DNA of 64,000 bases from a virus (taxonomy: Duplodnaviria > Heunggongvirae > Uroviricota > Caudoviricetes), in IMG/VR virus record IMGVR_UViG_3300031994_000056; one strand, 5' to 3'. The notes below the pieces were generated by a model. It saw only the letters and a list, made by a program, of their open reading frames with translations, searched no databases and had not been told where the DNA came from. The position numbers and the translations under genes were made by a program. Positions 17,720 through 49,177 of this stretch are shown here, in pieces. Position 1 is the first letter of the stretch; every line of letters starts with the position of its first letter.

Positions 17720-17881
17720 ATGATAAATACTAATACAAAAGAAATAACATTTACGATGGATACAAAAAATAATAGATATTATTTTGGATGTGGAATATTT
17801 TATATATTTTATACAAGAGTTAATAGAAATAATTTAAATAATTATTCATGTCATTTTATAGGCAAGGAGTTAAAAAAATGA
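17720..17881 (+). CDS. hypothetical small protein (52 aa)
   Basis: Its stop overlaps the next gene's start (ATGA at 17878). Confidence 0.35.
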   Translation: MINTNTKEITFTMDTKNNRYYFGCGIFYIFYTRVNRNNLNNYSCHFIGKELKK

Positions 17882-19419
17882 GTTTAATTATTGCAGGGTT
17901 TCCCGGTATGGGTAAAGATGTTGATATAAATACACCAGTATTAACTTTAAATGGGTGGACAAAAGCAGGTAATATAAAATTAGGTGATTATTTAATTGGA
18001 CAAAATGGTAGACCAACTAAAGTTGTAGGTGTGTATCCACAAGGTGTTTTAGATAAATATGAAATAACTTTCAATGACAATACAAAAACAAATTGTGGTA
18101 TAGATCATTTATGGCAAGTAGCAAAAACAATAAATAAAAAAACAAATGAACCAAGATGGCAAGTTTTAAGTTTAAGAGAAATAATTAAAGATGGTATTGT
18201 TCGCAAATATGGAAATAAAATAAAGAGCAAATGGAGAATACCACTTACACAACCTGTACAATTTGAAGAACAAAAACATATAATAGATTCTTATATTTTA
18301 GGAACGTTAATAGGTAATGGCTATTTATGTGGCAATGTTGTTGAATATATTGGCTCTAATGAAGATAACTTTATAATAGATAAAATAAAAAAACTAATTA
18401 ACAATAAAAATATTTCTTTTGAAAATTGCACAACAAAAAATCAAACTTGCAACCACTATAAATTTATTAGGAAAAATAAACAAAATGAATATAAAAAAGA
18501 AATTAATAGACTTGGATTAAATGTAAAATCTGGACAAAAGTTTATACCAAAAGAATATTTAGTTGATTCTATAGAAAACAGAATAAAATTGTTAAATGGT
18601 TTAATGGATACTGATGGTTCAAGCAATCCAAGAAATAGAATTACATATTCAACAACTTCTAAACAACTTGTAGAAAATATTATAGAACTAGTACAGTCAT
18701 TAGGTGGAATGGCATGGTGTCATGTTTATAATAGAATTGGGAGAGAAAAGGAATACAAAGGAAAAAAGTATATTACAAAATCACTTGAGTACACAATTAG
18801 AATCACATTAAATAATATTTGTCCTTTTTCATTACCGAGAAAAGCTAAAAATTGGAGAAAAACAAAGTTTAAAAGATATTTGATTGATATTAAAAAAATT
18901 AAACCTGCAGAATCTGTTTGTTTTAGAGTTGATAATAAAGATGGACTGTTTTTAATAGAGAACTATATTGTAACACATAATTCTTCTTTATTTAATGAGA
19001 ATAAAGAATATTATTCTGATAGTGATAGTTCAAAATTTAATAAAAAAGATTTTCCAAATAACTATATAAAACATATTAAAAGTATTATGGGAAAAAAACA
19101 ATTAATACTTGTTTCTTCTCATATAGAAGTAAGAAATGCTTTAGTAAAAGAAAACATACCTTTTATTTATGTATTACCTACGCTTGATAGATTAGAAGAA
19201 TTTTGTAGTAATTATGAGAAGCGTGGATCATCAAAAGAATTTATAGAAAAAGTTAGAAAGAATTGGGAACAATGGTTAATGATTTCTGGATATAATACAG
19301 AGTATCCAGTTTACTTTTGTAAGCATGGTTATTTAAAAGATAATTTAGAAGGTATAGTAAAAGAGTATAATAAATTCTATAATGAACAAGTAAATAGAAT
19401 GATTAATTGGCAGGTATAA
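17878..19419 (+). CDS. P-loop NTPase / kinase-like protein interrupted by an intein in the Walker-A motif
   Basis: N-extein MSLIIAGFPGMGK plus C-extein SSLF... rebuilds GxxGxGKS; AAGGAG ribosome-binding site before the ATG at 17878; extein is about 165 aa. Confidence 0.65.
   Translation: MSLIIAGFPGMGKDVDINTPVLTLNGWTKAGNIKLGDYLIGQNGRPTKVVGVYPQGVLDKYEITFNDNTKTNCGIDHLWQVAKTINKKTNEPRWQVLSLREIIKDGIVRKYGNKIKSKWRIPLTQPVQFEEQKHIIDSYILGTLIGNGYLCGNVVEYIGSNEDNFIIDKIKKLINNKNISFENCTTKNQTCNHYKFIRKNKQNEYKKEINRLGLNVKSGQKFIPKEYLVDSIENRIKLLNGLMDTDGSSNPRNRITYSTTSKQLVENIIELVQSLGGMAWCHVYNRIGREKEYKGKKYITKSLEYTIRITLNNICPFSLPRKAKNWRKTKFKRYLIDIKKIKPAESVCFRVDNKDGLFLIENYIVTHNSSLFNENKEYYSDSDSSKFNKKDFPNNYIKHIKSIMGKKQLILVSSHIEVRNALVKENIPFIYVLPTLDRLEEFCSNYEKRGSSKEFIEKVRKNWEQWLMISGYNTEYPVYFCKHGYLKDNLEGIVKEYNKFYNEQVNRMINWQV
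17917..18981 (+). mobile_element. intein (355 aa) with a LAGLIDADG homing-endonuclease domain; class-3-like features
   Basis: Block A DVDINTPVLTLNG (first residue is Asp, not Cys/Ser); LAGLIDADG motifs ILGTLIGNGY and LLNGLMDTDGS; C-terminal IVTHN followed by Ser +1; Trp in DHLW, Cys in SVCF and Thr in VTHN form a WCT triad. Confidence 0.6.
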
Positions 19420-19987: not shown

Positions 19988-20017
19988 TTGACAAAAGTGT
20001 AATAAATATATTATAAT
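19988..20017 (+). promoter_or_regulatory. consensus promoter (TTGACA-18-TATAAT) at the head of the tRNA cluster
   Basis: ttgaca at 19988-19993 and tataat at 20012-20017. Confidence 0.6.
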
Positions 20018-20124
20018 TATTTCTGTAGTATACTATATGCTCACCACCTCCGCCTCTGCTTATATTAAAAGCTTTGATATAAGTTATGCGAAATAGAGGT
20101 TAGTTCTACATCTGGGGATTAAGA

Positions 20125-20284: not shown

Positions 20285-20295
20285 ATGGAAATTAT

Positions 20296-20389
20296 GGAGG
20301 GATGGCAGAGTTGGTTTATTGCAGAGGTTTGCTAAACCTCCGTGGCAGTTGTAAAACTACCACCACTGGTCCGAATCCAGTTCCCTCCG
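20296..20389 (+). tRNA. tRNA-Ser (anticodon GCU), long variable arm
   Basis: Acceptor ggaggga/tccctcc, anticodon loop ttGCTaa, T-arm actgg-tccgaat-ccagt; 94 nt. Confidence 0.65.
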
Positions 20390-20397
20390 TTTTAATG

Positions 20398-20523
20398 TGA
20401 GGAGTAGTATAAATTTAAATGGCAGTACGTGGGTACCTCGTAAAATGTGGGACGCTTCCCTAGGATAGTAGAGGTAGATAAAAGCTCAGCCAAAATCCAG
20501 GTTCGATCCCTGGCTCTTCACCA
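20398..20523 (+). ncRNA. atypical tRNA-like element with a CCA-like 3' end and an insertion of about 50 nt
   Basis: T-arm ccagg-ttcgatc-cctgg plus ctcttca-cca at 20497-20523; the only complementary 5' acceptor strand (tgaggag) is at 20398; D-arm-like gtat...atac. Confidence 0.3.
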
Positions 20524-20615
20524 AATTTGTTCTTTAAAAATAAAAGAGTGGCGGAATAATATGGAGAGAATGTATGCCAGTATAGAGTGAAATTCTCTAT
20601 CTCTTTTATAATAGA

Positions 20616-20686
20616 TTCTTCCTCGTCCAACGGTAGGACATAGGTTTTTGGAACCTACAATTCTGGTTCGAATCCAGGGGAAGAAA
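20616..20686 (+). tRNA. tRNA-Gln (anticodon UUG)
   Basis: Acceptor ttcttcc/ggaagaa (U1:A72), D-arm gtcc-aacggta-ggac, anticodon loop ttTTGga, T-arm tctgg-ttcgaat-ccagg. Confidence 0.7.
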
Positions 20687-20688
20687 GT

Positions 20689-20760
20689 GCTACTGTGGCT
20701 CAATGGTAGAGCGCCTGCTTTGTAAGCAGGATGTTGGAGGTTCAAGTCCTCTCGGTAGCT
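20689..20760 (+). tRNA. tRNA-Thr (anticodon UGU)
   Basis: Acceptor gctactg/cggtagc, D-arm gctc-aatggta-gagc, anticodon loop ttTGTaa, T-loop ttcaagt. Confidence 0.8.
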
Positions 20761-20763
20761 TGT

Positions 20764-20807
20764 TTGCGATATAGCTCAATGGTGGAGCTTTATAATGTGG
20801 AGGTTAT
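20764..20807 (+). pseudogene. truncated tRNA fragment (5' acceptor and D-arm only)
   Basis: gcgatat-a-gctc-aatggt-ggagc reads as a tRNA 5' half, but no T-arm follows before the next tRNA. Confidence 0.3.
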
Positions 20808-20882
20808 TGGGAAGTAGCTCAATTGGTAGAGCGTTCGGCTGTTAACCGAAAGGTTTTGTGGGTTCGAAACCCACCTTCCCAG
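20808..20882 (+). tRNA. tRNA-Asn (anticodon GUU)
   Basis: D-arm gctc-aattggta-gagc, anticodon stem ttcgg/ccgaa with loop ctGTTaa, T-arm gtggg-ttcgaaa-cccac, acceptor cttccca. Confidence 0.7.
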
Positions 20883-20891
20883 TTTTAAATA

Positions 20892-20973
20892 GCAGGTATA
20901 GAGAAACGGCTCTCTCAGTAGGCTCATAACCTACCCTCGTAAGAGTAAGATGGGTTCAACTCCCACACCTGCA
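20892..20973 (+). tRNA. tRNA with a CAU anticodon (Met or Ile-lysidine), atypical long variable region
   Basis: Anticodon arm gtagg-ctCATaa-cctac, T-arm tggg-ttcaact-ccca, acceptor gcaggt/acctgc; a variable region of about 15 nt is unusual for a CAU tRNA. Confidence 0.45.
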
Positions 20974-20979
20974 ACCATT

Positions 20980-21053
20980 CCAGGAGTAGGATAATTAGCT
21001 ATTCCGCTCGCTTTGGGAGCGAGAGACTCCGTGTGCAAGTCACGGCTCCTGGA
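20980..21053 (+). tRNA. tRNA-Pro (anticodon UGG)
   Basis: Acceptor ccaggag/ctcctgg, anticodon stem ctcgc/gcgag with loop ttTGGga, T-arm ccgtg-tgcaagt-cacgg; a T-run follows. Confidence 0.6.
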
Positions 21054-21080
21054 TATTTTTATTTATACTGGAGTTAAAAA

Positions 21081-21353
21081 ATGACAGAAAAAACAATAGA
21101 ACAACAGTTAAAAGAGATTACAAATCTCACAAATTCGAATACAAAATTTACATATATTGAAGAAGATTCATCAGATTCTGCTATAAAATATAAAATTTTA
21201 ACAGATGATTCTCAAGAAAAGGTATTAAAAAAGTTAAAAAGATTTCAGAAATCTCATAAAATACTAAGTATTTCTTTCTCAACCAACACAAAATATTCAA
21301 AAATGTTTGACAGAGAGTATACGGAATATCATTTTTTTATACAATACTTATAG
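21081..21353 (+). CDS. hypothetical protein
   Basis: 90 aa; GGAG ribosome-binding site; last plus-strand gene before the minus-strand block. Confidence 0.45.
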   Translation: MTEKTIEQQLKEITNLTNSNTKFTYIEEDSSDSAIKYKILTDDSQEKVLKKLKRFQKSHKILSISFSTNTKYSKMFDREYTEYHFFIQYL

Positions 21354-21357
21354 TTTT

Positions 21358-21747
21358 TTAAATTCCGTTACCTAAATCTTGATAAAGTTCATCAAAATCT
21401 GCAAGAGATTGTATTGAATTATCAAGCATTATGTCAATATTATTGATACTTGTTTGTAAATTTTGAAGGTTCATATAAGATAAATCACGTACATTATGAT
21501 ATTTTGTCGTAAATTCTCCTATATATTTATCATAAAACTTACCATAAATAATCCAATCTTTTGGAAAAATATTGTAAATTAGTTGATCTATATTATTATA
21601 TTTTACGCCATATACGATAATATCACTAACATCATGTTTATAATATTGTCCAACTATGTGCATACATTTATTAAATGTATTTACATATTCACTAAACTTT
21701 GCGGTATTAAGGAGCATTATAGTCCCTCTCTTGTATGACATACCCAA
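21358..21747 (-). CDS. hypothetical protein
   Basis: 129 aa; last gene of the minus-strand operon. Confidence 0.5.
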   Translation of the reverse strand: MGMSYKRGTIMLLNTAKFSEYVNTFNKCMHIVGQYYKHDVSDIIVYGVKYNNIDQLIYNIFPKDWIIYGKFYDKYIGEFTTKYHNVRDLSYMNLQNLQTSINNIDIMLDNSIQSLADFDELYQDLGNGI

Positions 21748-22121
21748 GCATTGAGGTAATCTTTAGATACGGTTTTTATGGTGGTGGCATATATTACTTC
21801 ACTGGTAAGTTTTTCCAAATCTTTTAAATCTATATCATTTAAATTATAAAGGTCTCCATGGTAGAACACTTGAAGTTTATAATCAAGTTGTTCTGGTTTA
21901 AAGCTATACGATAATGCAATCTTTGCCAGATCAATCGGAAAGAAGTTTATAATATTACAATGGTACTTTCTTATATGATGACGTAATTTAAGTGTATTAG
22001 CTACTGTTATTTCATCTATAATATAGATATTATTATTCATAGGTGCTGGATCTATATATCTACTCCAATCCCAATGTGTCAATGCCATTATACACCTCTC
22101 CAGTGAAAATATTTTGGGCAT
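21717..22121 (-). CDS. hypothetical protein
   Basis: 134 aa; overlaps its neighbours. Confidence 0.5.
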   Translation of the reverse strand: MPKIFSLERCIMALTHWDWSRYIDPAPMNNNIYIIDEITVANTLKLRHHIRKYHCNIINFFPIDLAKIALSYSFKPEQLDYKLQVFYHGDLYNLNDIDLKDLEKLTSEVIYATTIKTVSKDYLNAWVCHTREGL

Positions 22122-22618
22122 GCATCACTAAGTGTTCTACTAGTATCTTTTGCCTGTGCCTGTATTATTTGGTACATAATAATAAACTCATGAAAGCTTA
22201 AATCTTCCAATCTTTTAATTGAATATGTATTAGTTTCTTCTACCTCAATATAACCGTCATAATAATATTTTTGTGTTGTTTTAAAACCAGCAGCCATAAA
22301 TACAGACATATCTCTAAGATCGCTTTCTTGAATTAGTTGTATGAAATACTGTTGTTCATCATTTTTATCAAAGACGAGATCCTCATTCATTTTATTGATT
22401 TCTTTTAGTTCTACTTGTTCGGTTATATTTTTAAACAGATCCAAGACTTTCCAGCATTCCATATTATTTATGAAATATTTATGTTCATTTAGTTTACATT
22501 GTGTAACACGTACAGGTATAAATTTATACATACTATCCGACAAACTGAACTGTATATCTCCAAATTTAGGTATAGTAACTTCTAGCATTTCATATTCCTC
22601 CGTTGCAAAAGCATACAA
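22088..22618 (-). CDS. hypothetical protein
   Basis: 176 aa; ends in RGV. Confidence 0.5.
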   Translation of the reverse strand: MYAFATEEYEMLEVTIPKFGDIQFSLSDSMYKFIPVRVTQCKLNEHKYFINNMECWKVLDLFKNITEQVELKEINKMNEDLVFDKNDEQQYFIQLIQESDLRDMSVFMAAGFKTTQKYYYDGYIEVEETNTYSIKRLEDLSFHEFIIMYQIIQAQAKDTSRTLSDACPKYFHWRGV

Positions 22619-22634
22619 TATTTAGGAATAAATG

Positions 22635-22958
22635 TCAAGTTTTTGCTCCGAATTCTTTTACAAGCCACAAGGCTTTACTATAACCCCAGATATCTCCCAA
22701 TGGTAAATCAAATCCGCTACATCCGTTCCAGTCTTTAAATTCTTTTAGATATTCTGGGACTGTTTTACTCAGTTCCGGGTACTTATCTTGTAGTGCTTTA
22801 AGTTTCTTGGCGAACTTATCGTACTGATAATCAGATATAATATTTGTATTGAGTCGGTAATATATAATGGAATGTACCAACACACACAGACGGAGTCTTT
22901 TGATTCCCTCCATGATTTTCCTTTCATCCTCGGTATATTTACGAATCTTTTCTTTCAT
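22635..22958 (-). CDS. hypothetical protein
   Basis: 107-aa ORF. Confidence 0.5.
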   Translation of the reverse strand: MKEKIRKYTEDERKIMEGIKRLRLCVLVHSIIYYRLNTNIISDYQYDKFAKKLKALQDKYPELSKTVPEYLKEFKDWNGCSGFDLPLGDIWGYSKALWLVKEFGAKT

Positions 22959-22961
22959 TTT

Positions 22962-23186
22962 TTATAATCCACAGATTGCAAGTATAATAAGGTACACACA
23001 TATAAACTTTACGCTGAGCACATCTTTAAGAAGTACAACTGCGCCTGCAAGTGTAAGTATACAAAGCCATCTATACATATTTATTTCCTCCCTGCCCCGT
23101 ACCATATAATCAGAGCCAAACAAATACATCCAAACATAAACCAAATCATACACCCTCCGTTTCTTCTGTAAGTATTTTAAATTCAT
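22962..23186 (-). CDS. small membrane protein
   Basis: 74 aa, two hydrophobic helices; overlaps the upstream gene by 41 nt. Confidence 0.35.
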   Translation of the reverse strand: MNLKYLQKKRRVYDLVYVWMYLFGSDYMVRGREEINMYRWLCILTLAGAVVLLKDVLSVKFICVYLIILAICGL

Positions 23187-23349
23187 CTAAATTCATGGTA
23201 AATTCTGTACCTTCTCCGATTATATAAAGATGCACTTTTTGTTTTTGCATATCATATTTAATTGGCATACACAATACATCTTCTTTAACCAGAAGCTCGG
23301 CAGTTGGAGTCATGCGAATTTGTATAGGTACTTTAACTTTTACAACCAT
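23146..23349 (-). CDS. small array protein ending in EGV
   Basis: 67 aa; member of the minus-strand small-gene array. Confidence 0.5.
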   Translation of the reverse strand: MVVKVKVPIQIRMTPTAELLVKEDVLCMPIKYDMQKQKVHLYIIGEGTEFTMNLDEFKILTEETEGV

Positions 23350-23380
23350 TAGAGTCCTCTAACCGAATCATATGTAAGTT

Positions 23381-23599
23381 TCATACACCCTCCTTAATTT
23401 CTTCGGTAATAAGTTTAAACACTTCGAGTGGAAGTATGAAGCTTTCTCCACCCCCAACGGGTTCAAGATACATATGATTTTCTGTATTCATATCATAGGA
23501 AACCCTATAGAATGTATTTTCGGGGATCATGGCGGTAGCTGTTCCACTATAACTATAACCAAATCCTTTAAAAATCGACGCTTTAAGTCTTACAATCAT
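23381..23599 (-). CDS. small array protein ending in EGV
   Basis: 72 aa; an 11-codon mini-ORF (MKLTYDSVRGL) bridges to the next gene through ATGA and TAATG overlaps. Confidence 0.5.
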   Translation of the reverse strand: MIVRLKASIFKGFGYSYSGTATAMIPENTFYRVSYDMNTENHMYLEPVGGGESFILPLEVFKLITEEIKEGV

Positions 23600-23600
23600 T

Positions 23601-23777
23601 CTAAACTCCTTTAATTAGTTCTTCGGAAAGTGGTGTGATATCTGCGATATATACAAAAAATTCCCGATTATCCAAACATACTTTGCAGTGCCAGCGACCA
23701 TCTTTTGTGGTCCCAAGAACTTCAAAAATCGTTCCTCTAGGTAATGTATATACATATCCGGTTATAACTCTATACAT
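23601..23777 (-). CDS. small array protein ending in KGV (58 aa, absent from the ORF track)
   Basis: MYRVITGYVYTLPRGTIFEVLGTTKDGRWHCKVCLDNREFFVYIADITPLSEELIKGV; its ATG lies 3 nt after the upstream stop. Confidence 0.5.
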   Translation of the reverse strand: MYRVITGYVYTLPRGTIFEVLGTTKDGRWHCKVCLDNREFFVYIADITPLSEELIKGV

Positions 23778-23780
23778 ATT

Positions 23781-24005
23781 CTAAACTCCGCCCTCAACTT
23801 TCTCTGACAGCCTTATTACTTCATCACCCCATAACCATCCAGACTCCTCTGTCTTTAATGATTTTACTTTTATTTGACATATATTCCTATCCAAAATCTT
23901 AATGGTATCTCCTCTTTTTAACCATCCGATATCTACAGTAACCACTCTTAATTGCCCTTTTATGCGCTTACGTTCTCTTTCTATTGCTTTTAAAAGTTCA
24001 TCCAT
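23781..24005 (-). CDS. small array protein ending in GGV
   Basis: 74 aa; 3-nt spacing to its neighbours. Confidence 0.5.
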   Translation of the reverse strand: MDELLKAIERERKRIKGQLRVVTVDIGWLKRGDTIKILDRNICQIKVKSLKTEESGWLWGDEVIRLSEKVEGGV

Positions 24006-24008
24006 ATA

Positions 24009-24230
24009 TTAAACACCCTCTTCTAATATATCCATATAATCTGTAAAATCTTCTGTAGGTATCCTAAATATATCATGTGAATTCATTATATTCTGTATTT
24101 CTATGAAACTGTCAGATATACTTAAAGTTTCATATAAAGTACCCTTGGGTATCTGTACTACGACGATATCTATACCAGTAGGATCTGTACCAATAGGTCT
24201 AAAATAAATACATTTTGTTATACATAACAT
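24009..24230 (-). CDS. small array protein ending in EGV (start moved to the internal ATG)
   Basis: The ORF track begins at TTG 24266, but TTGTATAAT there is the -10 of an internal promoter. GGAGGT and the ATG at 24230 give MLCITKCIYF... Confidence 0.45.
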   Translation of the reverse strand: MLCITKCIYFRPIGTDPTGIDIVVVQIPKGTLYETLSISDSFIEIQNIMNSHDIFRIPTEDFTDYMDILEEGV

Positions 24231-24257
24231 ATATACCGGTTTACCTCCATAAACCGA

Positions 24258-24287
24258 ATTATACAATACTTCCTATCCAAGTGTCAA
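24258..24287 (-). promoter_or_regulatory. internal consensus promoter on the minus strand (TTGACA-18-TATAAT)
   Basis: Minus-strand ttgacacttggataggaagtattgtataat; GGAGGT ribosome-binding site downstream. Confidence 0.5.
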
Positions 24288-24377
24288 TACTTATACATAA
24301 AGTCGTACGACTAAATGTATAAACAAACCATAAATTCTAATGACTAATTGGTTTTAACCCAAGTATGTTTAGGTTCA

Positions 24378-24584
24378 TTACACACCTTCCCAGATTCTAT
24401 GTACATAACTTGGATCTCTAAACTCTTCATAAGAAAGATGTAGCCGATGGTATTCATTTAGCACACTAACCAGGTTCGCCGAATAATTGTCGGATATGTC
24501 AACTCTCATGACGGTACCTTTCGGTATCATATAGCTATCACGAAAACCTCCCATATATAAATTACGTGTAGTTATACAAAGCAT
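24378..24584 (-). CDS. small array protein ending in EGV
   Basis: 68 aa; a 13-codon mini-ORF (MNLNILGLKPISH) overlaps its stop (TAATG). Confidence 0.5.
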   Translation of the reverse strand: MLCITTRNLYMGGFRDSYMIPKGTVMRVDISDNYSANLVSVLNEYHRLHLSYEEFRDPSYVHRIWEGV

Positions 24585-24587
24585 ATT

Positions 24588-24791
24588 TTACACTCCTTTC
24601 CCATTAACAATTGCTTTTCTTATCCCTTTTATATACCTTAATACCTTCTGATAAGCTTCAATTACTTCCTTATCGGTAGTCTGTAACAGTTCCCTTTCTA
24701 TAAATGCCTTTATATCATCACATACAGCTATCTCATCTGTATAAGTATACGGGCTTTCATTATCAAAAAGATCATCATATAATATACTCAT
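24588..24791 (-). CDS. small array protein ending in KGV
   Basis: 67 aa; AAAGGAGTG at its 3' end serves as the ribosome-binding site of the next gene. Confidence 0.5.
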   Translation of the reverse strand: MSILYDDLFDNESPYTYTDEIAVCDDIKAFIERELLQTTDKEVIEAYQKVLRYIKGIRKAIVNGKGV

Positions 24792-24803
24792 ATTACCTCC
24801 TAA

Positions 24804-24893
24804 TTAATCCAACAGTTTAAGTATAAGTATACAAACTACACCAGCTATACAAACCATACAAATACCACCAAATATAGATTCGGCTATTGTCAT
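24804..24893 (-). CDS. 29-aa hydrophobic peptide, first gene of the minus-strand operon
   Basis: TAAGGAGGGG ribosome-binding site then ATG: MTIAESIFGGICMVCIAGVVCILILKLLD. Confidence 0.35.
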   Translation of the reverse strand: MTIAESIFGGICMVCIAGVVCILILKLLD

Positions 24894-24925
24894 ACCTAGC
24901 CCCTCCTTATATATTAACTATCCGA

Positions 24926-24955
24926 ATTATACAATAATCCAAACTAAAATGTCAA
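24926..24955 (-). promoter_or_regulatory. consensus promoter on the minus strand (TTGACA-18-TATAAT) for the divergent small-gene operon
   Basis: Minus-strand ttgacattttagtttggattattgtataat. Confidence 0.6.
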
Positions 24956-24989
24956 GGGAAATTTATTTTCTCGGGATGTAAAAAAGGCA

Positions 24990-25145
24990 GACGGTTTGGG
25001 AAATTCAAAATCCGTACACGTGCTACATAAGTAAACTATCCAGACAGATTGGAAATTTCGAAATCCGTACATGCGTTCTATATAAACTATATGGTTAAAA
25101 AAGGCGTACGAAAGGGAAAAATCAAAAACCAGACACGCGTTCTTA
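24990..25145. repeat. three imperfect direct repeats of about 60 bp (GGGAAATTCAAAATCCGTACACGYG...TAAACTAT)
   Basis: Copies start near 24999, 25050 and 25113, each preceded by AAAAAAGGC(A/G)(G/T)ACG; they sit in the divergent region between the minus-strand promoter and the gene at 25311. Confidence 0.6.
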
Positions 25146-25310
25146 AAGGGGCAATGACCGCTTAAAGAGGGGGGACCTTCCCCCAAGCGTATCTTACACC
25201 GGAAAAACCCTACCTACCTGGGTCATTTACCTAGTATATACTAAGTAATACCTGGTATAGGCGGGTTATTAATAATGGGGTGGCGCCCCTTACCAGCCAA
25301 GGAGGACATC

Positions 25311-25754
25311 ATGTCCAATACAACAACCTTCCAAGTTCTTAAGAACTTGGTGTTCACTGCTGACATTACAGCAGCATCTTTGGAGACTAAAGTTTCCAGA
25401 AAGACAGGTACTTCGTACCAGCAGTTCAGTACGCCTATTTATTTAGGTGGAGTAAGAGCAGGAGACATTACAGCCTTCGTACCTAAAGCTCCAAAATTGG
25501 TACTCAGAGATGGTGAGTATAAACCCGTATTTATACTTGACTATGAGTATAAAGCATGGGTAAGCTTAAAGGAAGAAGACCTCGGAGACTACAAGATGTT
25601 CTACGAAGGTGACCAGAATCAGCACCACGTAAAAGGCTATTCCAAAGGTGGAATAACCATCTGGGCTTATACGGATATCCAGGATAAGAAAGAAGCTGGA
25701 TTGATAAGAGCTCAGATCGTTCTCAGAACCAGAGGCTTTGCAACCGCAAAGTAA
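25311..25754 (+). CDS. hypothetical protein in the GC-richer island
   Basis: AAGGAGG ribosome-binding site then ATG (MSNTTTFQVL...); about 45% GC against about 28% elsewhere; no motif recognised. Confidence 0.5.
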   Translation: MSNTTTFQVLKNLVFTADITAASLETKVSRKTGTSYQQFSTPIYLGGVRAGDITAFVPKAPKLVLRDGEYKPVFILDYEYKAWVSLKEEDLGDYKMFYEGDQNQHHVKGYSKGGITIWAYTDIQDKKEAGLIRAQIVLRTRGFATAK

Positions 25755-25807
25755 GGTAGGAGCACTGACCAAACCCATCGGCTTCGGTGGGTTTGGATGA
25801 GTGCTTT

Positions 25808-25917
25808 GGAACCTGTAGCTCAGTGGCAGAAGCTTGAAGTGCTCCCTGAAATAACGGGATACAACCGTAACACATGTCCAACGGTGACCCTGGTTCGATT
25901 CCAGGCAGGTTCCACCA
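25808..25917 (+). ncRNA. tRNA-like RNA with an encoded CCA and an extra internal stem-loop (about 110 nt)
   Basis: Acceptor ggaacct/aggttcc then a-CCA; D-arm agct-cagtggcaga-agct; T-arm cctgg-ttcgatt-ccagg; no canonical 7-nt anticodon loop; preceded by the 10-bp hairpin aaacccatcg-gctt-cggtgggttt. Confidence 0.4.
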
Positions 25918-25938
25918 AAATCTCAAAAGGAGGTTATT

Positions 25939-26103
25939 ATGAAAAAATTGATAAACCTATTTTTTATAGTAGGTGCAATAATTATTTATGGCTTAATAGT
26001 TGGAGCGTTCTTTCTGGGAAATGCAAGTGAAATACTATTCCTTATGCTCGGTTTCCTGGGCGGAATCTATATCGCACTTTATTTGACTGTAAAATATTTA
26101 TAG
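25939..26103 (+). CDS. small membrane protein (54 aa, absent from the ORF track)
   Basis: AAGGAGG ribosome-binding site; MKKLINLFFIVGAIIIYGLIVGAFFLGNASEILFLMLGFLGGIYIALYLTVKYL. Confidence 0.45.
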   Translation: MKKLINLFFIVGAIIIYGLIVGAFFLGNASEILFLMLGFLGGIYIALYLTVKYL

Positions 26104-26119
26104 GTAGAAATAATAATCA

Positions 26120-26151
26120 CCCGAGAATATTGACATATCCTTGGGTTTTTT
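26120..26151 (+). terminator. possible intrinsic terminator
   Basis: cccgag ... cttggg stem (G-U wobble) with a 14-nt loop, then tttttt. Confidence 0.3.
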
Positions 26152-26464
26152 GGTAAGCTATTTAGAATGATAAGAATGTTTCCAGAGATTCTTCTGCGGA
26201 ACAATCAAGCGTTTACCGCCTGTCCTATAGCTCGTTACTAGCCTAAGAGTAAGATTGTCAACCCCGACTTACGTGAATACATCTTTCTACATTCACCACT
26301 TATCGTATATGGCTCCACGTCTTTCGATTGATTTTTCAATGTTTTTCTGAGTTTGAAATTATTAACTTATCTCAACTAAGTTCCTTTATCAAAGGTGTGA
26401 AACTTAGAAAAGCACGCTGATACAAAGTGTGCAATTATGATATATTTGTCAAGGGAGGTATGTT

Positions 26465-26617
26465 ATGTTTAAAAGGTATATTATATACGCTCGTAGTGAA
26501 GAACGCACAGATTATGTAACGGAGTTCCGCACTCAGGAAAGTGCAGAGAAGTTCATACAAGATAAAGCTCACGAGTTCCAGGGATGTGAGCTTTATTGCG
26601 TTGTGAAGCATTATTAA
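26465..26617 (+). CDS. hypothetical small protein (50 aa)
   Basis: AAGGGAGG ribosome-binding site; MFKRYIIYARSEERTDYVTEFRTQESAEKF... Confidence 0.35.
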   Translation: MFKRYIIYARSEERTDYVTEFRTQESAEKFIQDKAHEFQGCELYCVVKHY

Positions 26618-26623
26618 AGGAGG

Positions 26624-26758
26624 ATGGAAATGATAATAGTATTAAATGTAGTATTCGGAATTTTATTATTTTGTTACTGTCACTTTATTAACGGTCCAGT
26701 AACAAAAGCTCTAAAGGAGGAACTTAAAGCGTTGGAAGCAAAACGTGTTGAAAAGTAA
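26624..26758 (+). CDS. hypothetical small membrane protein (about 44 aa)
   Basis: AAAGGAGG ribosome-binding site; M(EM)IIVLNVVFGILLFCYCHF... Confidence 0.3.
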   Translation: MEMIIVLNVVFGILLFCYCHFINGPVTKALKEELKALEAKRVEK

Positions 26759-26796
26759 ACGCGTTTTGAAAATTTTGAAATCGACTTGCGATTTCT

Positions 26797-26880
26797 TTCT
26801 TGGGAAGGAGGCAGACCCAAGCGTAGCACTTGAGAGTAGTTCACTCTCATCCAAGCCTTAGTTTGCTTGGTGTGTCTGCT
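26797..26880. repeat. large inverted repeat (15-bp stem, 14/15 matched) enclosing two internal hairpins
   Basis: gggaaggaggcagac ... gtctgcttccttccc; internal pairs gagag/ctctc and ccaagc/gcttgg. Confidence 0.55.
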
Positions 26881-26888
26881 TCCTTCCC

Positions 26889-26949
26889 TGTGTATAAGTA
26901 GGAAAGTTATACACAAGTTATTCACAACCTGTGGATAAGCTGTGTATAA
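26889..26949. promoter_or_regulatory. cluster of five DnaA boxes (TTATNCACA) overlapping a candidate promoter for the plus-strand small-gene array
   Basis: tgtgtataa at 26889-26897 (minus), ttatacaca at 26907-26915 (plus), ttattcaca at 26918-26926 (plus), tgtggataa at 26930-26938 (minus, perfect TTATCCACA), tgtgtataa at 26941-26949 (minus). A ttcaca -35 and tataac -10 lie among them. Confidence 0.6.
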
Positions 26950-26995
26950 CTGGATTACGATAGTAAGACTATAACTTAAGGATAGGAGGGATAAT

Positions 26996-27205
26996 ATGCC
27001 AAACATAAATAGAGTAATTGTAGTATGCAAAACATTGCTTAAGTATAAGCTAAAAGGGTTAATAGATGAACATGATGATACCATAATAACCAGTATGTTC
27101 TATCATATGGATTTAGATAGTTTAACTAGGAATGATTGGGAGTATGTAATAGAACAGTTGGTTGCAGAGTGTGTATATTTGGAATTCTGTACATGTTTAA
27201 AATAA
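26996..27205 (+). CDS. hypothetical protein, first gene of the plus-strand array
   Basis: GGAGGG ribosome-binding site; 69 aa. Confidence 0.5.
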   Translation: MPNINRVIVVCKTLLKYKLKGLIDEHDDTIITSMFYHMDLDSLTRNDWEYVIEQLVAECVYLEFCTCLK

Positions 27206-27217
27206 AGGAGGTAACCT

Positions 27218-27400
27218 ATGAATACCTATATGAAGAAAGATTCGGTGATACATTTAGATGATGCTACGATAGTAGTTAGGGAAGGCAAATGTGAAACCTG
27301 TTGTTTTTTCAATGAGTTTTCAACTGATCACTGTACTATTCGTAATAAGTGTAGAGTATCATTAGGGTTGCATTATGAGAGGCTGGAAGGAGGTGTGTGA
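27218..27400 (+). CDS. small Cys-rich array protein (CxxC), ends LEGGV
   Basis: VREGKCETCCFF motif; its stop overlaps the next ATG (GTGTGATG). Confidence 0.55.
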   Translation: MNTYMKKDSVIHLDDATIVVREGKCETCCFFNEFSTDHCTIRNKCRVSLGLHYERLEGGV

Positions 27401-27663
27401 TGATACAAATTGAAGAATGGTATATGTATGGTAAGAAGTACTACACCATTGAATATAACGGTAAAACATATATAGCTAGGAAATCAAATATGCCCTGTAA
27501 AGCTTGTGCATTCGTAAGTAATATATCACCAAGCGGATATTTTACTGATAGAGTGTATTGTAAGCTTCCTAATACACTCCGAACAAAAGAACTTATGTGT
27601 CCGCTTCACGTAGCATTTCCAAACGAGAATAAAGTATTTGTGGAAGTGATAGGAGGTGTGTGA
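27397..27663 (+). CDS. small Cys-rich array protein, ends IGGV
   Basis: PCKACAF motif; ATGA overlap. Confidence 0.55.
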   Translation: MMIQIEEWYMYGKKYYTIEYNGKTYIARKSNMPCKACAFVSNISPSGYFTDRVYCKLPNTLRTKELMCPLHVAFPNENKVFVEVIGGV

Positions 27664-27968
27664 TGGAGGACTTTAGAGAAGCATTTAAGAAGTATATAGA
27701 AGGTGTTGCTACAGAGAAAATAAATAAGATTGCGAGAAAAAGTGCGAAACGTTTTAAACAGAACCAAATACTAGAGCTTGATGGTGTGAAAGTTATGATA
27801 CAAAAAGGAGCTTGTGGGAATGGAGGATGCTACTTTAGTAGGGAAAGAACCAGTAAGATATCCGGGAAATATATAGGCAGAGTTTGTATGGCACGGTTTC
27901 ATTGTTATAAAATACTTAAGGAGCTTCATGGTAAGTATCATTTTATTTGTGTTGAAGGAGGGGTATGA
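27660..27968 (+). CDS. small Cys-rich array protein, ends EGGV
   Basis: IQKGACGNGGCYFS motif. Confidence 0.55.
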   Translation: MMEDFREAFKKYIEGVATEKINKIARKSAKRFKQNQILELDGVKVMIQKGACGNGGCYFSRERTSKISGKYIGRVCMARFHCYKILKELHGKYHFICVEGGV

Positions 27969-28150
27969 TGGCAAAATATAAGATGGGAGATAAAATAACT
28001 TATGGAAAGGCAAGACTTACAGTGGTGAAAGGAAAATGTGAGGATTGCTACTTCTCGACTCCTTATGGTTGCATGTCAGTATTTATTGAAGGCTGTGCAA
28101 GTACACTTGGGTTTGATTTGATATTCATTCCTACAAGAAAGGGGGTATAA
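27965..28150 (+). CDS. small Cys-rich array protein (family VxKGxCxxCYF), paralog 1
   Basis: MMAKYKMGDKITYGKARLTVVKGKCEDCYFS...; 61 aa, ends KGV. Confidence 0.6.
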   Translation: MMAKYKMGDKITYGKARLTVVKGKCEDCYFSTPYGCMSVFIEGCASTLGFDLIFIPTRKGV

Positions 28151-47057: not shown

Positions 47058-47351
47058 ATGTTTGATTATGTATTATATGTAATAAAGTTCTTGACATTTG
47101 TTATTGGTATCGGGACTTACATTTTTCAATGGGCAAGTTTGATGTATGAAATTATAGAAGGAGAAGTTAAAAATAAAAAAGAAATTATATGGAAAGTTAT
47201 ACCTTTTGGTTTTCTAATACTCGTAGTTTGGAAGTGGCAAGAACTTAGCAAAAAAGAGTTTGTTTATGAAGCAGAAGTTGTAAATAAAGAAGAAGTAGGA
47301 GTTGTAAATACAGAAAAAAAGGAGGAAAGAAAATGTTTGAAAAATATATAG
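47058..47351 (+). CDS. small membrane protein
   Basis: 97 aa, two TM helices. Confidence 0.45.
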   Translation: MFDYVLYVIKFLTFVIGIGTYIFQWASLMYEIIEGEVKNKKEIIWKVIPFGFLILVVWKWQELSKKEFVYEAEVVNKEEVGVVNTEKKEERKCLKNI

Positions 47352-49177
47352 GACAAAATCACATTAAAGATTTACTTTCAAAGTTTATTACTTACAGTAA
47401 ATCTTCAACAGAACCTTTGCAACATATGTTAATTACTGGTTCTTCGGGTGCGGGTAAGACGACATTAGCAAATGCAATCGCAAAAGAACTTGGAGTTAAA
47501 TGTGTATCGTTACTTGCAACAAATGCATCTGAAGATGATTTGATAAAAGCAATCTGCAATTTGAGTGATAAAGATATCTTGTTCATAGATGAATGTTTAT
47601 CTGGTGATACAGAAGTTTTAACCGAAAACGGTTATATAAGATTAGATAAATTAACAACTGAAACTCGTGTAGCTCAATGGAATAATGGAGTTATCGAATT
47701 TGTTTATCCAGAAAGAATAGTTAAAAAATATGCAAAGAAAGTTTATGAATTGCCTATAAAAGACAATATGATATTGTATCAAACAGAACATCATAGAAAT
47801 CTTATATATGATAAACAGTCAAAAACAAATAAAGTAAAATACCCTTCACAGTTAACAAGTGCACATAGTGTTATTTGTTCTGGAAAGATAAAAGATAAAC
47901 ATAATAAGTTAACTTTATTAGAAAAATTAATTATTATGACACAAGCTGATGGGTCAGTTAATGATAAAAATGTCGCAGGTATTCCAGTTACATTTTCGAT
48001 TTCATTATCTAAGCAAAGAAAAATAAAGTATTTAAATTCATTAATAAAATTAGATATAAATAACTCTTTTAAAATACGTGAAGTAAAAGGTGCTAAAGCT
48101 CATGAGAATGTAAAATCAATGAAACGTTGGTTGTATAATTTACCTAAAACTTCAAAAGATTATAAACTATTATCTAATTGGTTTACTTTAACTGATTTTG
48201 ATTTATCTAAAGCAAATGAGTTTTTAAAGAATATATTTATTTGGGATTCTGCAGACTATGCTACTGGTAAAGTATATTGTACTACGGAAAAAGCTAATGC
48301 TGAATTTGTATATCAAGTAATGGTTCTCGCAGGTTATACACCATATATAAGTAAGCAAATTGATAAAAGAGGTTACAAAACACATTATAGAGTTTATATG
48401 CCAGATAAAACACGTAAATTATCTTTGCAGCATATACATGAAAAAAGAAAGCTTATTGATTGGAATGATTATATGTATTGTATAACAGTACCTTCTACAT
48501 TTTTTATAGTAAAAAAAGATGGATATACATTTGTAACAGGTAATTGTCATGCATTGAATAAGAAACTTATTGAGATATTGTTTCCAATAATAAGTGAACA
48601 TATATTATACACAAAGTATCAAGGAGTGATGACTAGGTTTAGAGTATCAAACTTTACTATCATTGGAGCAACAACTCATGAAGGTAAGTTACCGACTGCA
48701 TTCTTAAATAGATTTACAGTTACTTTAAATCTTAAACCTTATACTGAAAGTGAATTGTCTACAATGACAAAACTATATCTCGGACAATATAAAGCAGATG
48801 ATACTATGCTTAATGCAATTGTGAATATGTCTAAAGGAGTTCCAAGAATTATAACAAATATAGTTAATAGTGTGAAAGTTTATTTGAAAAGTTTAGGTAA
48901 GGATACATTAGAGCAGAAAGACTTAAAGATGATACAAATGTTTTTAGGTGTTAATGACATTGGTTTAAACAATGTTGACTTCGAAATATTAAAGTATCTC
49001 TGCAAAGTTAAAGCTGCATCGTTAAAAACTCTTGCAAGTGTATTGAGTATTGAAGCAATTAATATCGAGCAGATACATGAACCATACTTAATTAAACTTG
49101 GTTTCATTGAAAGATGTTCTGCAGGAAGAACAATTACAGATGCAGGAAGAAAATATTTAGTTGACAAACAAATTTAA
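47333..49177 (+). CDS. ruvB: RuvB-like Holliday-junction AAA+ ATPase interrupted by an intein
   Basis: Walker A GSSGAGKTTLANAIAKELG; Walker B ILFIDE then intein then CHAL (IHRL equivalent); GATTHEGKLPTAFLNRF and GVPRII sensor regions; C-terminal winged-helix-like tail matching the RuvB layout. Confidence 0.8.
   Translation: MFEKYIGQNHIKDLLSKFITYSKSSTEPLQHMLITGSSGAGKTTLANAIAKELGVKCVSLLATNASEDDLIKAICNLSDKDILFIDECLSGDTEVLTENGYIRLDKLTTETRVAQWNNGVIEFVYPERIVKKYAKKVYELPIKDNMILYQTEHHRNLIYDKQSKTNKVKYPSQLTSAHSVICSGKIKDKHNKLTLLEKLIIMTQADGSVNDKNVAGIPVTFSISLSKQRKIKYLNSLIKLDINNSFKIREVKGAKAHENVKSMKRWLYNLPKTSKDYKLLSNWFTLTDFDLSKANEFLKNIFIWDSADYATGKVYCTTEKANAEFVYQVMVLAGYTPYISKQIDKRGYKTHYRVYMPDKTRKLSLQHIHEKRKLIDWNDYMYCITVPSTFFIVKKDGYTFVTGNCHALNKKLIEILFPIISEHILYTKYQGVMTRFRVSNFTIIGATTHEGKLPTAFLNRFTVTLNLKPYTESELSTMTKLYLGQYKADDTMLNAIVNMSKGVPRIITNIVNSVKVYLKSLGKDTLEQKDLKMIQMFLGVNDIGLNNVDFEILKYLCKVKAASLKTLASVLSIEAINIEQIHEPYLIKLGFIERCSAGRTITDAGRKYLVDKQI
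47594..48544 (+). mobile_element. intein (317 aa) with a degenerate LAGLIDADG-like endonuclease region
   Basis: Block A CLSGDTEVLTENG immediately after Walker B; ends ...FVTGN with Cys at +1; LIIMTQADGS resembles a LAGLIDADG motif. Confidence 0.65.

Follow-up and report, generated by a model that had tools for sequence, protein, structure and literature searches.

The host-takeover module of phage SPO1 is made up of small early genes whose promoters and ribosome-binding sites (RBSs) are typical of highly expressed genes (PMC6873191). In T4-type phages, PeSL cassettes, each a promoter with a stem-loop, mediate shuffling (PMC2839356). At the level of translation, termination-reinitiation at stop-start overlaps of the ATGA and TAATG kind is established (PMC6728339). 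Features recalling all three are found together in the locus described here, a tightly packed accessory operon of ~3.6 kb that runs on the minus strand from 24955 to 21358 of a 64,000-nt stretch of phage DNA (the window). The block studied is the promoter-proximal part of this operon, which converges with a plus-strand gene at 21081–21353. Judged from its sequence, the ~3.6-kb block is rather likely to be an early, "host-takeover-like" accessory operon driven by host RNA polymerase, with RBSs written into codons and with mini-ORFs that are deletion scars, in a phage distantly related to the SPO1-like phages. As a region type it is ordinary for a phage: a tightly packed operon of tiny genes that are probably expressed early.

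Phage context and gene content

The source phage is best read as a large, low-GC, uncultivated phage with a distant relation to the SPO1-like (Herelleviridae) phages. The helicase encoded in the window has ~30% identity to those of Bacillus SPO1-like phages, SPO1-like helicases being its closest matches; the window also contains a tRNA array, and related genomes assemble at 161–163 kb, with an assembly of 300 kb as well. No DNA near-identical to the window was found in the phage collection, and the IMG/VR scans returned neither the family pattern nor the conserved 24-mer described below. Rfam, run on the whole window and permissively on 24900–27000, gave tRNAs only. The locus is of interest in that its phage group is known from metagenomes only and its relatives supply natural presence/absence variants.

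As the first-pass annotation had listed, a 29-aa hydrophobic ORF (g0) is followed by seven ORFs of 58–74 aa (g1–g7) that end in KGV, EGV, EGV, GGV, KGV, EGV and EGV; these and the genes that follow are all on the minus strand. The g0 ORF (24804..24893, AAGGAGG 9 nt upstream) has a 93% identical copy in the related locus L015 and is missing from most relatives. The 67-aa g1 (24588..24791, ending KGV) is not SH3-like by sequence; its orthologs occur in L004, L014, L015, L017 and L019–L022, and its pN/pS is 0.39–0.47. Two pairs of paralogs are SH3-like, namely g2 (24378..24584, 68 aa, with 19 homolog clusters and pN/pS of 0.25–0.72) with g3 (24009..24230, 73 aa), and g6 (23381..23599, 72 aa) with g7 (23146..23349, 67 aa), the last of which has its own Shine-Dalgarno (SD) sequence, AGAGGA, and is missing from L001 and L006–L011. 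Between the pairs lie g4 (23781..24005, 74 aa, an N-terminal helix followed by the candidate domain; sub-threshold match to Pfam SH3_3, E 0.029; pN/pS 0.31–0.50) and g5 (23601..23777, 58 aa; SH3_3 at E 0.0047), both of which are probably SH3-like by sequence. The proposal that g5 is a real gene was borne out: orthologs are called in all relatives (cluster P0029, 12 member sequences), and its pN/pS is 0.47 against the diverged copy in L004. A plain ORF list has a default minimum of 60 aa, which the gene falls short of.

Downstream of g7 are two further hydrophobic peptides, g8 (23081..23149, 22 aa), which overlaps g7 by ATGA and is 95–100% conserved with a pN/pS of 0.11, and g9 (22962..23078, 38 aa), whose amino acid identity is 100% in L006 and L012. 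The 107-aa g10 (22635..22958) is a stand-alone domain Ia of NAD+-dependent DNA ligase (phrog_6466, E 8e-28; Pfam Nlig-Ia PF22745, E 4.6e-27, its 94.9 bits being above the gathering cutoff of 27). Three co-oriented genes of 166, 123 and 119 aa (21358..22588), syntenic in all relatives, close the block; Pfam and PHROG searches gave no matches for them. Across the block genes tested, pN/pS ranges from 0.11 to 0.72, which supports the reading of these ORFs as real genes. The predicted products are six SH3-like beta-barrel proteins (g2–g7), the unrelated g1, three membrane peptides of 22–38 aa, the ligase Ia domain and three uncharacterised proteins. Its SH3-like mini-proteins, membrane peptides and stand-alone ligase domain make the block a small, well-delimited candidate set for early host interaction.

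Promoters, palindrome and mosaic gene content

Two perfect TTGACA-18-TATAAT promoters had been claimed for the minus strand, and each matches at 12/12 positions: P1 at the block head (24955–24926) and its paralog P2 inside the block (24287–24258). The accompanying picture of a divergent minus-strand operon with one consensus promoter at its head and a second internally holds as well, the position, hexamers and 18-nt spacing of both being kept across relatives. P1 retains its 18-nt spacer in all 11 of the 11 related loci that span it. P2 is kept in 8 loci, and in none of them does the spacer depart from 18 nt; it is retained after g2 in L012, L001 and L015, and is the head promoter in L006–L009. 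The two promoters share 26 of 34 bases, ATTGTATAATTCGG included. Seven 12/12 sites occur in the window, against a simulated mean of 0.35 and maximum of 3, and the spacers of the remaining five are unrelated. Two 11/12 promoter-like sites, at 24115 and 21437, both lie within genes. Host sigma-70/sigma-A RNA polymerase would initiate at the paralogous consensus promoters P1 and P2, and such use would make the block genes early; both the timing and the promoter use are predicted from the DNA.

The first-pass annotation had also re-labelled the annotated TTG start of g3 as the -10 element of P2. This TTG (24266–24264) is indeed not the true start, as it lies upstream of any P2 start site; the gene starts instead at ATG 24230, from which it begins MLCIT..., as do its paralog g2 and all orthologs. 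The TTG itself, however, abuts the -10 hexamer and is outside it.

An imperfect palindrome with the core ATACATTTAGTCGTACGACTTTATGTAT (24291..24322) ends 3 nt upstream of the P2 -35 element. Its predicted RNA has a dG of -12.4 kcal/mol (z -2.9) and an AT-rich stem, and the L012 copy has perfect 13-bp arms (z -3.2). A role as an intrinsic terminator is doubtful, because no U-tract follows the stem, and was not adopted. In L015 the unit of palindrome and promoter is present at both P1 and P2; in the window P1 is without a palindrome. The 64 kb contain a single palindrome and a pair of promoter cores.

Gene content changes at these elements. In L006–L009 the upstream spacer is joined to a P2-type promoter and g0–g2 are missing; L001 and L012 lack g0 and g1 after P1. 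The promoter contexts are chimeric, with three different upstream contexts joined to promoter cores. By comparison with relatives, both promoters act as recombination junctions, and gene content is mosaic as a result. Recombination at shared promoter/palindrome cassettes and at stereotyped stop-start junctions would drive gene-content evolution, and both mini-ORFs would be scars of such deletions, that is, stumps that keep the start codon and SD of lost genes. By the yardstick of PeSLs, a promoter stands beside a stem-loop at P2 and indels are bounded by the cassettes; many repeated copies were not found. A bolder extension, which we regard as unlikely on balance, would have the six SH3-like mini-proteins be fast-diversifying early host-target binders or anti-defence decoys, shuffled by a PeSL-like promoter-plus-palindrome cassette, with the repeats and 24-mer beside P1 serving as a regulatory or recombination hub. 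To our knowledge, no earlier cassette-driven shuffling system of this sort has been described in a Firmicutes phage lineage; if the extension is true, this cassette would be the first.

SH3-like proteins and the divergent spacer

The proteins ending in EGV and KGV had been proposed to form one distinct family. When their five C-terminal residues were trimmed, hhalign gave 95% for g2–g3, 97% for g6–g7, 40–48% for g5 with g2 or g3 and at most 10% for all other pairs, and g1 was unrelated to the other block proteins. What stands of the proposal is therefore the clear relationship within g2–g3 and within g6–g7; by sequence, the six proteins g2–g7 fall into at least four groups. Fold models or weak Pfam matches suggest that g2–g7 share an SH3-like fold. 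Both of the two fold models, which are of moderate confidence and built on shallow alignments of 12 and 22 sequences, display the small beta-barrel of SH3 topology, and the top structural match of each is the bacterial SH3b domain of a cell-wall hydrolase (2evr_A). Among the block proteins and their homologs, no match to Pfam SH3_2, SH3_3 or SH3b_T is above the gathering cutoff; the best score is that of the g4 homolog P0054 (SH3_2, 20.8 bits against a cutoff of 21.8), the others reaching 13–17.5 against 27. The profile search proposed earlier for these proteins recovered only relatives from the same phage group. This is a tiny family: the deep profile search of 1.84 billion proteins yielded 11 representatives. 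A 401-aa rhodanese-repeat match (P0056, E 2e-4) in that search was set aside as spurious, resting on an IPRG-type motif only. A PDB sequence search with both family profiles returned nothing meaningful. Similar uncharacterised mini-proteins are found in other phages.

By analogy with the SPO1 module, the small proteins would most likely act early in infection by binding host proteins and redirecting them, and "host takeover" is applied to the block as a label by analogy only. The locus has the SPO1-type cluster of small genes with consensus promoters (two at 12/12) and strong RBSs (an SD before every start). As to homology with SPO1 gp37–gp60, the PHROG scan of g1 and g3–g6 gave no match at E <= 0.01.

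The resemblance to 2evr_A in both models, the weak SH3b_T match of the g5-like protein of L004 and the three hydrophobic peptides of 22–38 aa interleaved with the SH3-like genes could also be taken to mean that the block is a cell-envelope module, concerned for instance with lysis timing, superinfection exclusion or the binding of the cell wall, and does not encode cytoplasmic host-takeover factors. We consider this quite unlikely: on reading their sequences, the SH3-like proteins have neither an N-terminal hydrophobic signal sequence nor an attached catalytic domain, no Pfam SH3 match reaches its cutoff, and an early cytoplasmic programme accords better with the consensus host-type promoters and with the ligase-Ia gene nearby.

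Just upstream of P1 are three direct repeats of ~52 nt (24978..25146), two of them 73% and 65% identical to the reference copy; they are unique in the window and number 1–3 in relatives. They are followed by a conserved GC-rich spacer on the plus strand (25130..25310), a possible leader of the divergent gene at 25311–25754, which includes an invariant 24-mer (25150–25173). A structured RNA is not claimed for this spacer: RNAalifold, on both strands and with 8 and 12 sequences, gave a single local hairpin, in which the changes are one-sided (G-C to G-U) and compensatory pairs are almost lacking. A CGTACG-type core of 12 nt, with one mismatch, is common to repeat copy 3 and the palindrome at P2. 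The direct repeats abutting P1, their uniqueness and variable copy number, this common core, the adjacent 24-mer and the DNA-ligase domain of g10 invite the reading that the spacer serves as an origin of replication or as a hub where regulators bind, to which the operon belongs as a replication or regulation module, the repeats and palindrome being protein-binding sites by which P1 and P2 are switched on or off. That reading is very unlikely in our estimation. The repeat copies are just 65–73% alike, Pfam and PHROG revealed neither an initiator nor a DNA-binding protein in the block, the change in GC skew here is the one expected from gene orientation, and the core, for which 0.5 matches are expected, could be a chance match and not a common operator.

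Gene junctions, mini-ORFs and comparison with known systems

Nearly all block genes meet in stop-start overlaps of 4 and 1 nt (ATGA, TAATG) or across gaps of 0–3 nt, and SDs of GGAGG, AGGAG or GGTG type precede every start in the block by 4–13 nt. The earlier claim that RBSs lie within the final codons of the preceding gene is supported across the window, where an SD core falls within the last three codons of 42 of the 73 genes with an abutting downstream gene, compared with 4 of the 62 others. The xGV endings arise because the SD of the next gene occupies the last codons of the upstream one: an SD written in the last two or three codons would force x-Gly-(Val/Ile/Leu) C-termini, and 31 of the 73 abutting genes in the whole window end in Gly followed by V, I, L or M, with an NTN codon last. 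EGV/KGV as a family signature thus had to be abandoned, being a nucleotide-level signal and not a sign of homology. In L001, g0 and g1 are lost, yet AAAGGAGTGTAAAATATG is kept as a bare RBS for g2. The 0–3 nt packing and the overlaps would favour coupled, roughly equal translation, as far as layout can indicate.

Two mini-ORFs had been described as overlapping both the upstream stop and the downstream start, an arrangement that holds for mini-ORF1 and not for mini-ORF2, which overlaps the upstream stop only. Mini-ORF1 (MKLTYDSVRGL; 23349..23384, minus) shares nucleotides with the g6 stop (ATGA) at one end and with the g7 start (TAATG) at the other. It is composed of the 5' stump of a 98-aa gene (x98) fused to the junction that precedes g7, its tail GGACTCTAATG being that of the g5–g7 junction in L004. 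The intact 98-aa gene (MKLTYDLVGFKNKR...) begins at this start in L017 and L018, the L018 copy being ATGA-coupled to a g6-like gene; L001 has an internally deleted x98 copy and a 15-codon mini-ORF variant coupled to nothing. Besides the window, the 11-codon form is present only in the near-identical L012; L006–L011, where g6 runs straight into g8, and L004, where g5 runs straight into g7, lack it. Its start context, AGGAGG-gtgt-ATGA, is that of the conserved g8, which makes its translation probable, and ribosomes could pass from it to g7. By these comparisons mini-ORF1 is the leftover 5' end of a deleted x98 gene and not an evolved relay. Mini-ORF2 (MNLNILGLKPISH; 24337..24378, minus) is read, by the same kind of comparison, as what a deletion left of the 5' end of an x124-type gene: a 124-aa gene (MDMHILGLHPMNS...) whose start it matches is intact in L004 at the same junction. 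Its stop, a TAG, lies 50 nt ahead of the P2 -35 element and 106 nt short of the next gene, so it relays to nothing. It is kept in 4 loci, within an intergenic stretch conserved throughout, with 1–2 nonsynonymous and 0–1 synonymous differences from relatives.

The notion that the mini-ORFs are evolved relay cistrons passing terminating ribosomes between micro-genes whose EGV/KGV products form one family defined by its C-terminus, which gains from the bridge between g6 and g7, the g8-type start that probably allows translation and the established mechanism of reinitiation, can hardly be right and is largely refuted by sequence comparison with relatives, given that mini-ORF1 is confined to the window and L012 (non-conservation in relatives having been named in advance as refuting), that g6 or g5 elsewhere runs directly into g8, g7 or the intact 98-aa gene with the same start, that the L001 variant couples to nothing, that g7 has its own SD, that mini-ORF2 stops short of, and has no, downstream partner, and that xGV tails are a genome-wide, nucleotide-level signal by which homology is not defined.

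Read as scars, the mini-ORFs indicate that a very short ORF between two genes can be what a deletion left behind, its strong start site retained. The xGV endings indicate that, where an AT-rich phage genome is tightly packed, a C-terminal tripeptide common to several proteins can reflect a nucleotide-level signal for ribosome binding instead of a protein motif. Both points should be useful for the annotation of phage micro-genes and the interpretation of ribosome-profiling data.

Set against known systems, the locus resembles T4-type PeSLs (PMC2839356, PMC4122927) in having a sigma-70 consensus promoter beside a stem-loop and indels between related genomes that are bounded by such elements. 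The analogy is loose because the window has a single copy of the palindrome and no U-tract; PeSLs number dozens per genome, against one palindrome and two promoter cores here, and, unlike them, the present stem is AT-rich and upstream of the -35 element; the phage is of another lineage and shows no similarity in sequence. The SH3-like products differ from SH3 and bacterial SH3b domains in being stand-alone proteins of 58–74 aa with Pfam SH3 matches below the cutoffs. The junctions are like those of termination-reinitiation coupling (PMC6728339, PMC10666635), with ATGA/TAATG overlaps or short gaps and an SD inside the upstream gene; apart from the 11-codon ORF that a deletion left between two junctions, nothing about them is unusual, the coupling itself being predicted. 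The SPO1 module (PMC6873191) differs in that most products here appear to share one SH3-like fold. Like the present block, whose phage is presumably also one of Firmicutes, it belongs to a large Firmicutes phage, comprises many small genes with strong host-type promoters and RBSs, and has its genes in several short operons, which we count as a further likeness.

Gene order and promoters of the inverted block

Nearly all genes in the window lie on the + strand, and the sole inverted block of minus-strand genes runs from ~24955 down to 21358. Numbered from promoter P1 (24955-24926) onward, it comprises g0 (29 aa, hydrophobic), g1 (67 aa, C-terminus KGV), g2 (68 aa, EGV), mini-ORF2 (24337-24378; 13 codons, MNLNILGLKPISH), a palindrome with 13-16-nt arms, the internal promoter P2 (24287-24258), g3 (73 aa, EGV), g4 (74 aa, GGV), g5 (58 aa, KGV), g6 (72 aa, EGV), mini-ORF1 (23349-23384; 11 codons, MKLTYDSVRGL), g7 (67 aa, EGV), g8 and g9 (22 and 38 aa, hydrophobic), g10 (22635-22958) and three last genes of 166, 123 and 119 aa. 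The 107-aa g10 product is a stand-alone NAD+-dependent DNA ligase domain Ia (PF22745, E 5e-27), found at the identical position in every related locus extending that far. The micro-gene series ending in KGV/EGV/GGV that the first-pass annotation had described is present as g1-g7 (58-74 aa). The 58-aa gene that it had found missing from the ORF track, g5, is real, as evidenced by its being called in all relatives and by a pN/pS of 0.47 against the diverged copy in locus L004. For g1-g9, pN/pS was 0.11-0.72 wherever changes sufficed; the small genes are under purifying selection.

Both promoters proposed from the sequence, at the block head and internally, proved to be 12/12 matches with 18-nt spacers, and 26/34 positions are identical between them, ATTGTATAATTCGG included. 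Seven 12/12 sites occur in the window, all intergenic, whereas 300 Markov simulations led us to expect 0.35 and never gave more than 3; P1 and P2 are therefore real promoters and not chance matches. P1 stands at the head of the block in 11/11 loci spanning that point, and P2-type promoters lie 3' of g2 in four loci. In L006-L009, the P2-type promoter and the upstream spacer are directly joined, with g0-g2 absent; among the related loci, promoter cores occur joined to three different upstream contexts. The palindrome, with an RNA fold z of ~ -3, terminates 3 nt upstream of the P2 -35; a U-tract was looked for 3' of it and was absent. It moves together with the promoter and is found at both P1 and P2 in L015.

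The spacer (24978-25310) separates P1 from a divergent + strand gene whose true start is 25311 (SD AAGGAGG). Three ~52-nt direct repeats lie within it, of which relatives carry 1-3 copies; beside them are a variable hairpin region and an invariant 24-mer at 25150-25173, which reads CCCCCTCTTTAAGCGGTCATTGCC on the minus strand. Consensus folding yielded little beyond a single hairpin, whose G-C to G-U variation can be read on the + strand alone, and an Rfam search of the spacer returned no match. The spacer could serve as leader RNA, regulator sites or origin.

The longest-ORF TTG start of g3 (24266) had been re-labelled as the P2 -10 element. The annotated start is indeed wrong, but the TTG adjoins the hexamer on its 5' side and is therefore upstream of any P2 transcript. 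Sequence comparison places the real start at ATG 24230; the product then begins MLCITKC..., resembling the paralog g2 (MLCITT...) and every ortholog. A 9-bp hairpin (UCGGUUUAU/GUAAACCGG) at 24236-24257 on the minus strand, kept in L001 and L006-L009, has its loop within the g3 SD (UGGAGG) and pairs the flanking SD bases. Its 5' arm begins immediately after the P2 -10, so it should form fully only in P1 read-through and not in P2 transcripts.

Terminal tripeptides as ribosome-binding sites

The xGV endings had been taken as the mark of a distinct protein family. Each of those in the block, however, is the site of the next gene's SD (AAAGGAGTGTAAAATATG, GAAGAGGGTGTTTAATATATG, AAGGAGGGTGTATGA and others). 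Window-wide, we examined 73 crudely called genes whose stop is followed by another start at -8 to +12 nt: the second-to-last residue was Gly in 31/73, and the last codon carried T at its second base in all 31 of these (V 16, I 9, L 4, M 2). Of the 73 abutting genes, 42 had an SD core within their last three sense codons, versus 4/62 genes without an abutting neighbour. In L001, g0 and g1 are lost, yet AAAGGAGTGTAAAATATG is kept, non-coding, as the g2 RBS. The tripeptide is thus a signal at the nucleotide level and does not mark a protein family. The SD core accounts for the Gly but not entirely for the strict second-base T. A further run of 60-102-aa genes ending in GGV or KGV, with ATGA/TGATG overlaps, follows the same packing rule at 27218-28150 (+), and is probably the CxxC set of the first-pass annotation.

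Origin of the mini-ORFs

Both mini-ORFs had been proposed as translational relays, and were compared across 16 related loci. The 11-codon form of mini-ORF1 occurs elsewhere only in L012 (97-98% identical in g6 and g7), and this lack of conservation argues against a relay. In L018, a g6-like gene enters an intact 98-aa gene (beginning MKLTYDLVGFKNKR), present also in L017, via the identical ATGA overlap. L001-L003 carry an internally deleted copy consisting of its N-terminal 15 codons and C-terminal 24 residues (E 6e-12). In L006-L011, g6 passes straight into g8, and in L004 g5 passes straight into g7 via GGAGGACTCTAATG, the 3' end of the window's mini-ORF1. Mini-ORF1 is therefore a deleted-gene stump joined to the pre-g7 junction. 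Its start context is still a good one, and it could well be translated; g7 carries an SD of its own.

Mini-ORF2 does overlap the g2 stop, but no downstream start, ending 106 nt short of g3. An intact 124-aa gene (MDMHILGLHPMNS...) begins at its position in L004. The 12-residue match between the two (E 7.6) is by itself not significant; from the identical position and DNA similarity beyond the stop, we read mini-ORF2 as the remaining 5' stump of such a gene. Its 13-codon form is retained in four loci; against relatives it differs by 1-2 nonsynonymous and 0-1 synonymous changes, and the whole surrounding intergenic stretch is conserved as well. The earlier observations were largely accurate, then, and their interpretation partly wrong.

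Phage setting and related systems

GC in the window is low (~23-37%). Its DEAD-box helicase shares ~30% identity with the SPO1-like Bacillus phage enzymes, and a search of the phage collection found no near-identical relative. The block proteins were found in metagenome assemblies only, namely the window's own 300,445-bp contig and relatives of 161-181 kb. In our reading the phage is large, uncultivated and distantly Herelleviridae-like. Three related genomes, assembled from different samples, measure 161-163 kb; the 300,445-bp contig represents either a far larger genome or an assembly that is partly concatemeric. Also on the + strand are a 523-aa protein (17848-19419) whose Hom_end, LAGLIDADG and Hint matches make it an intein or homing endonuclease, and a 614-aa RuvB-like protein (47333-49177) in which a ~450-aa insert, which may be an intein, separates RuvB_N (residues 2-88) from RuvB_C (543-609). 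Another 12/12 promoter (19988-20021, +), kept in relatives, lies 5' of a six-tRNA array (20295-21054); a CACCACCTCCGCCTCTGC stretch, also conserved, follows it ahead of the first tRNA.

The block is best read as an accessory operon, driven by host polymerase and translationally coupled, with its gene content shuffled at promoter cassettes and stop-start junctions. The analysis itself establishes the promoters and their conservation, the placing of SDs in terminal codons, purifying selection on the micro-genes, the SH3-like fold predictions and where the mini-ORFs come from; early timing, coupling and a role directed at the host are inferred. In other systems, overlaps of this kind are well known to couple translation (PMC6728339, PMC10666635). 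The P2 cassette is similar in logic to the PeSL cassettes of T4-type phages (PMC2839356), but differs in copy number and stem composition. As an analogue of the block, we suggest the SPO1 host-takeover module, with its small early genes, whose promoters and RBSs are of the kind that strongly expressed genes have (PMC6873191); early timing and a host-directed function would likewise be predicted for the block.
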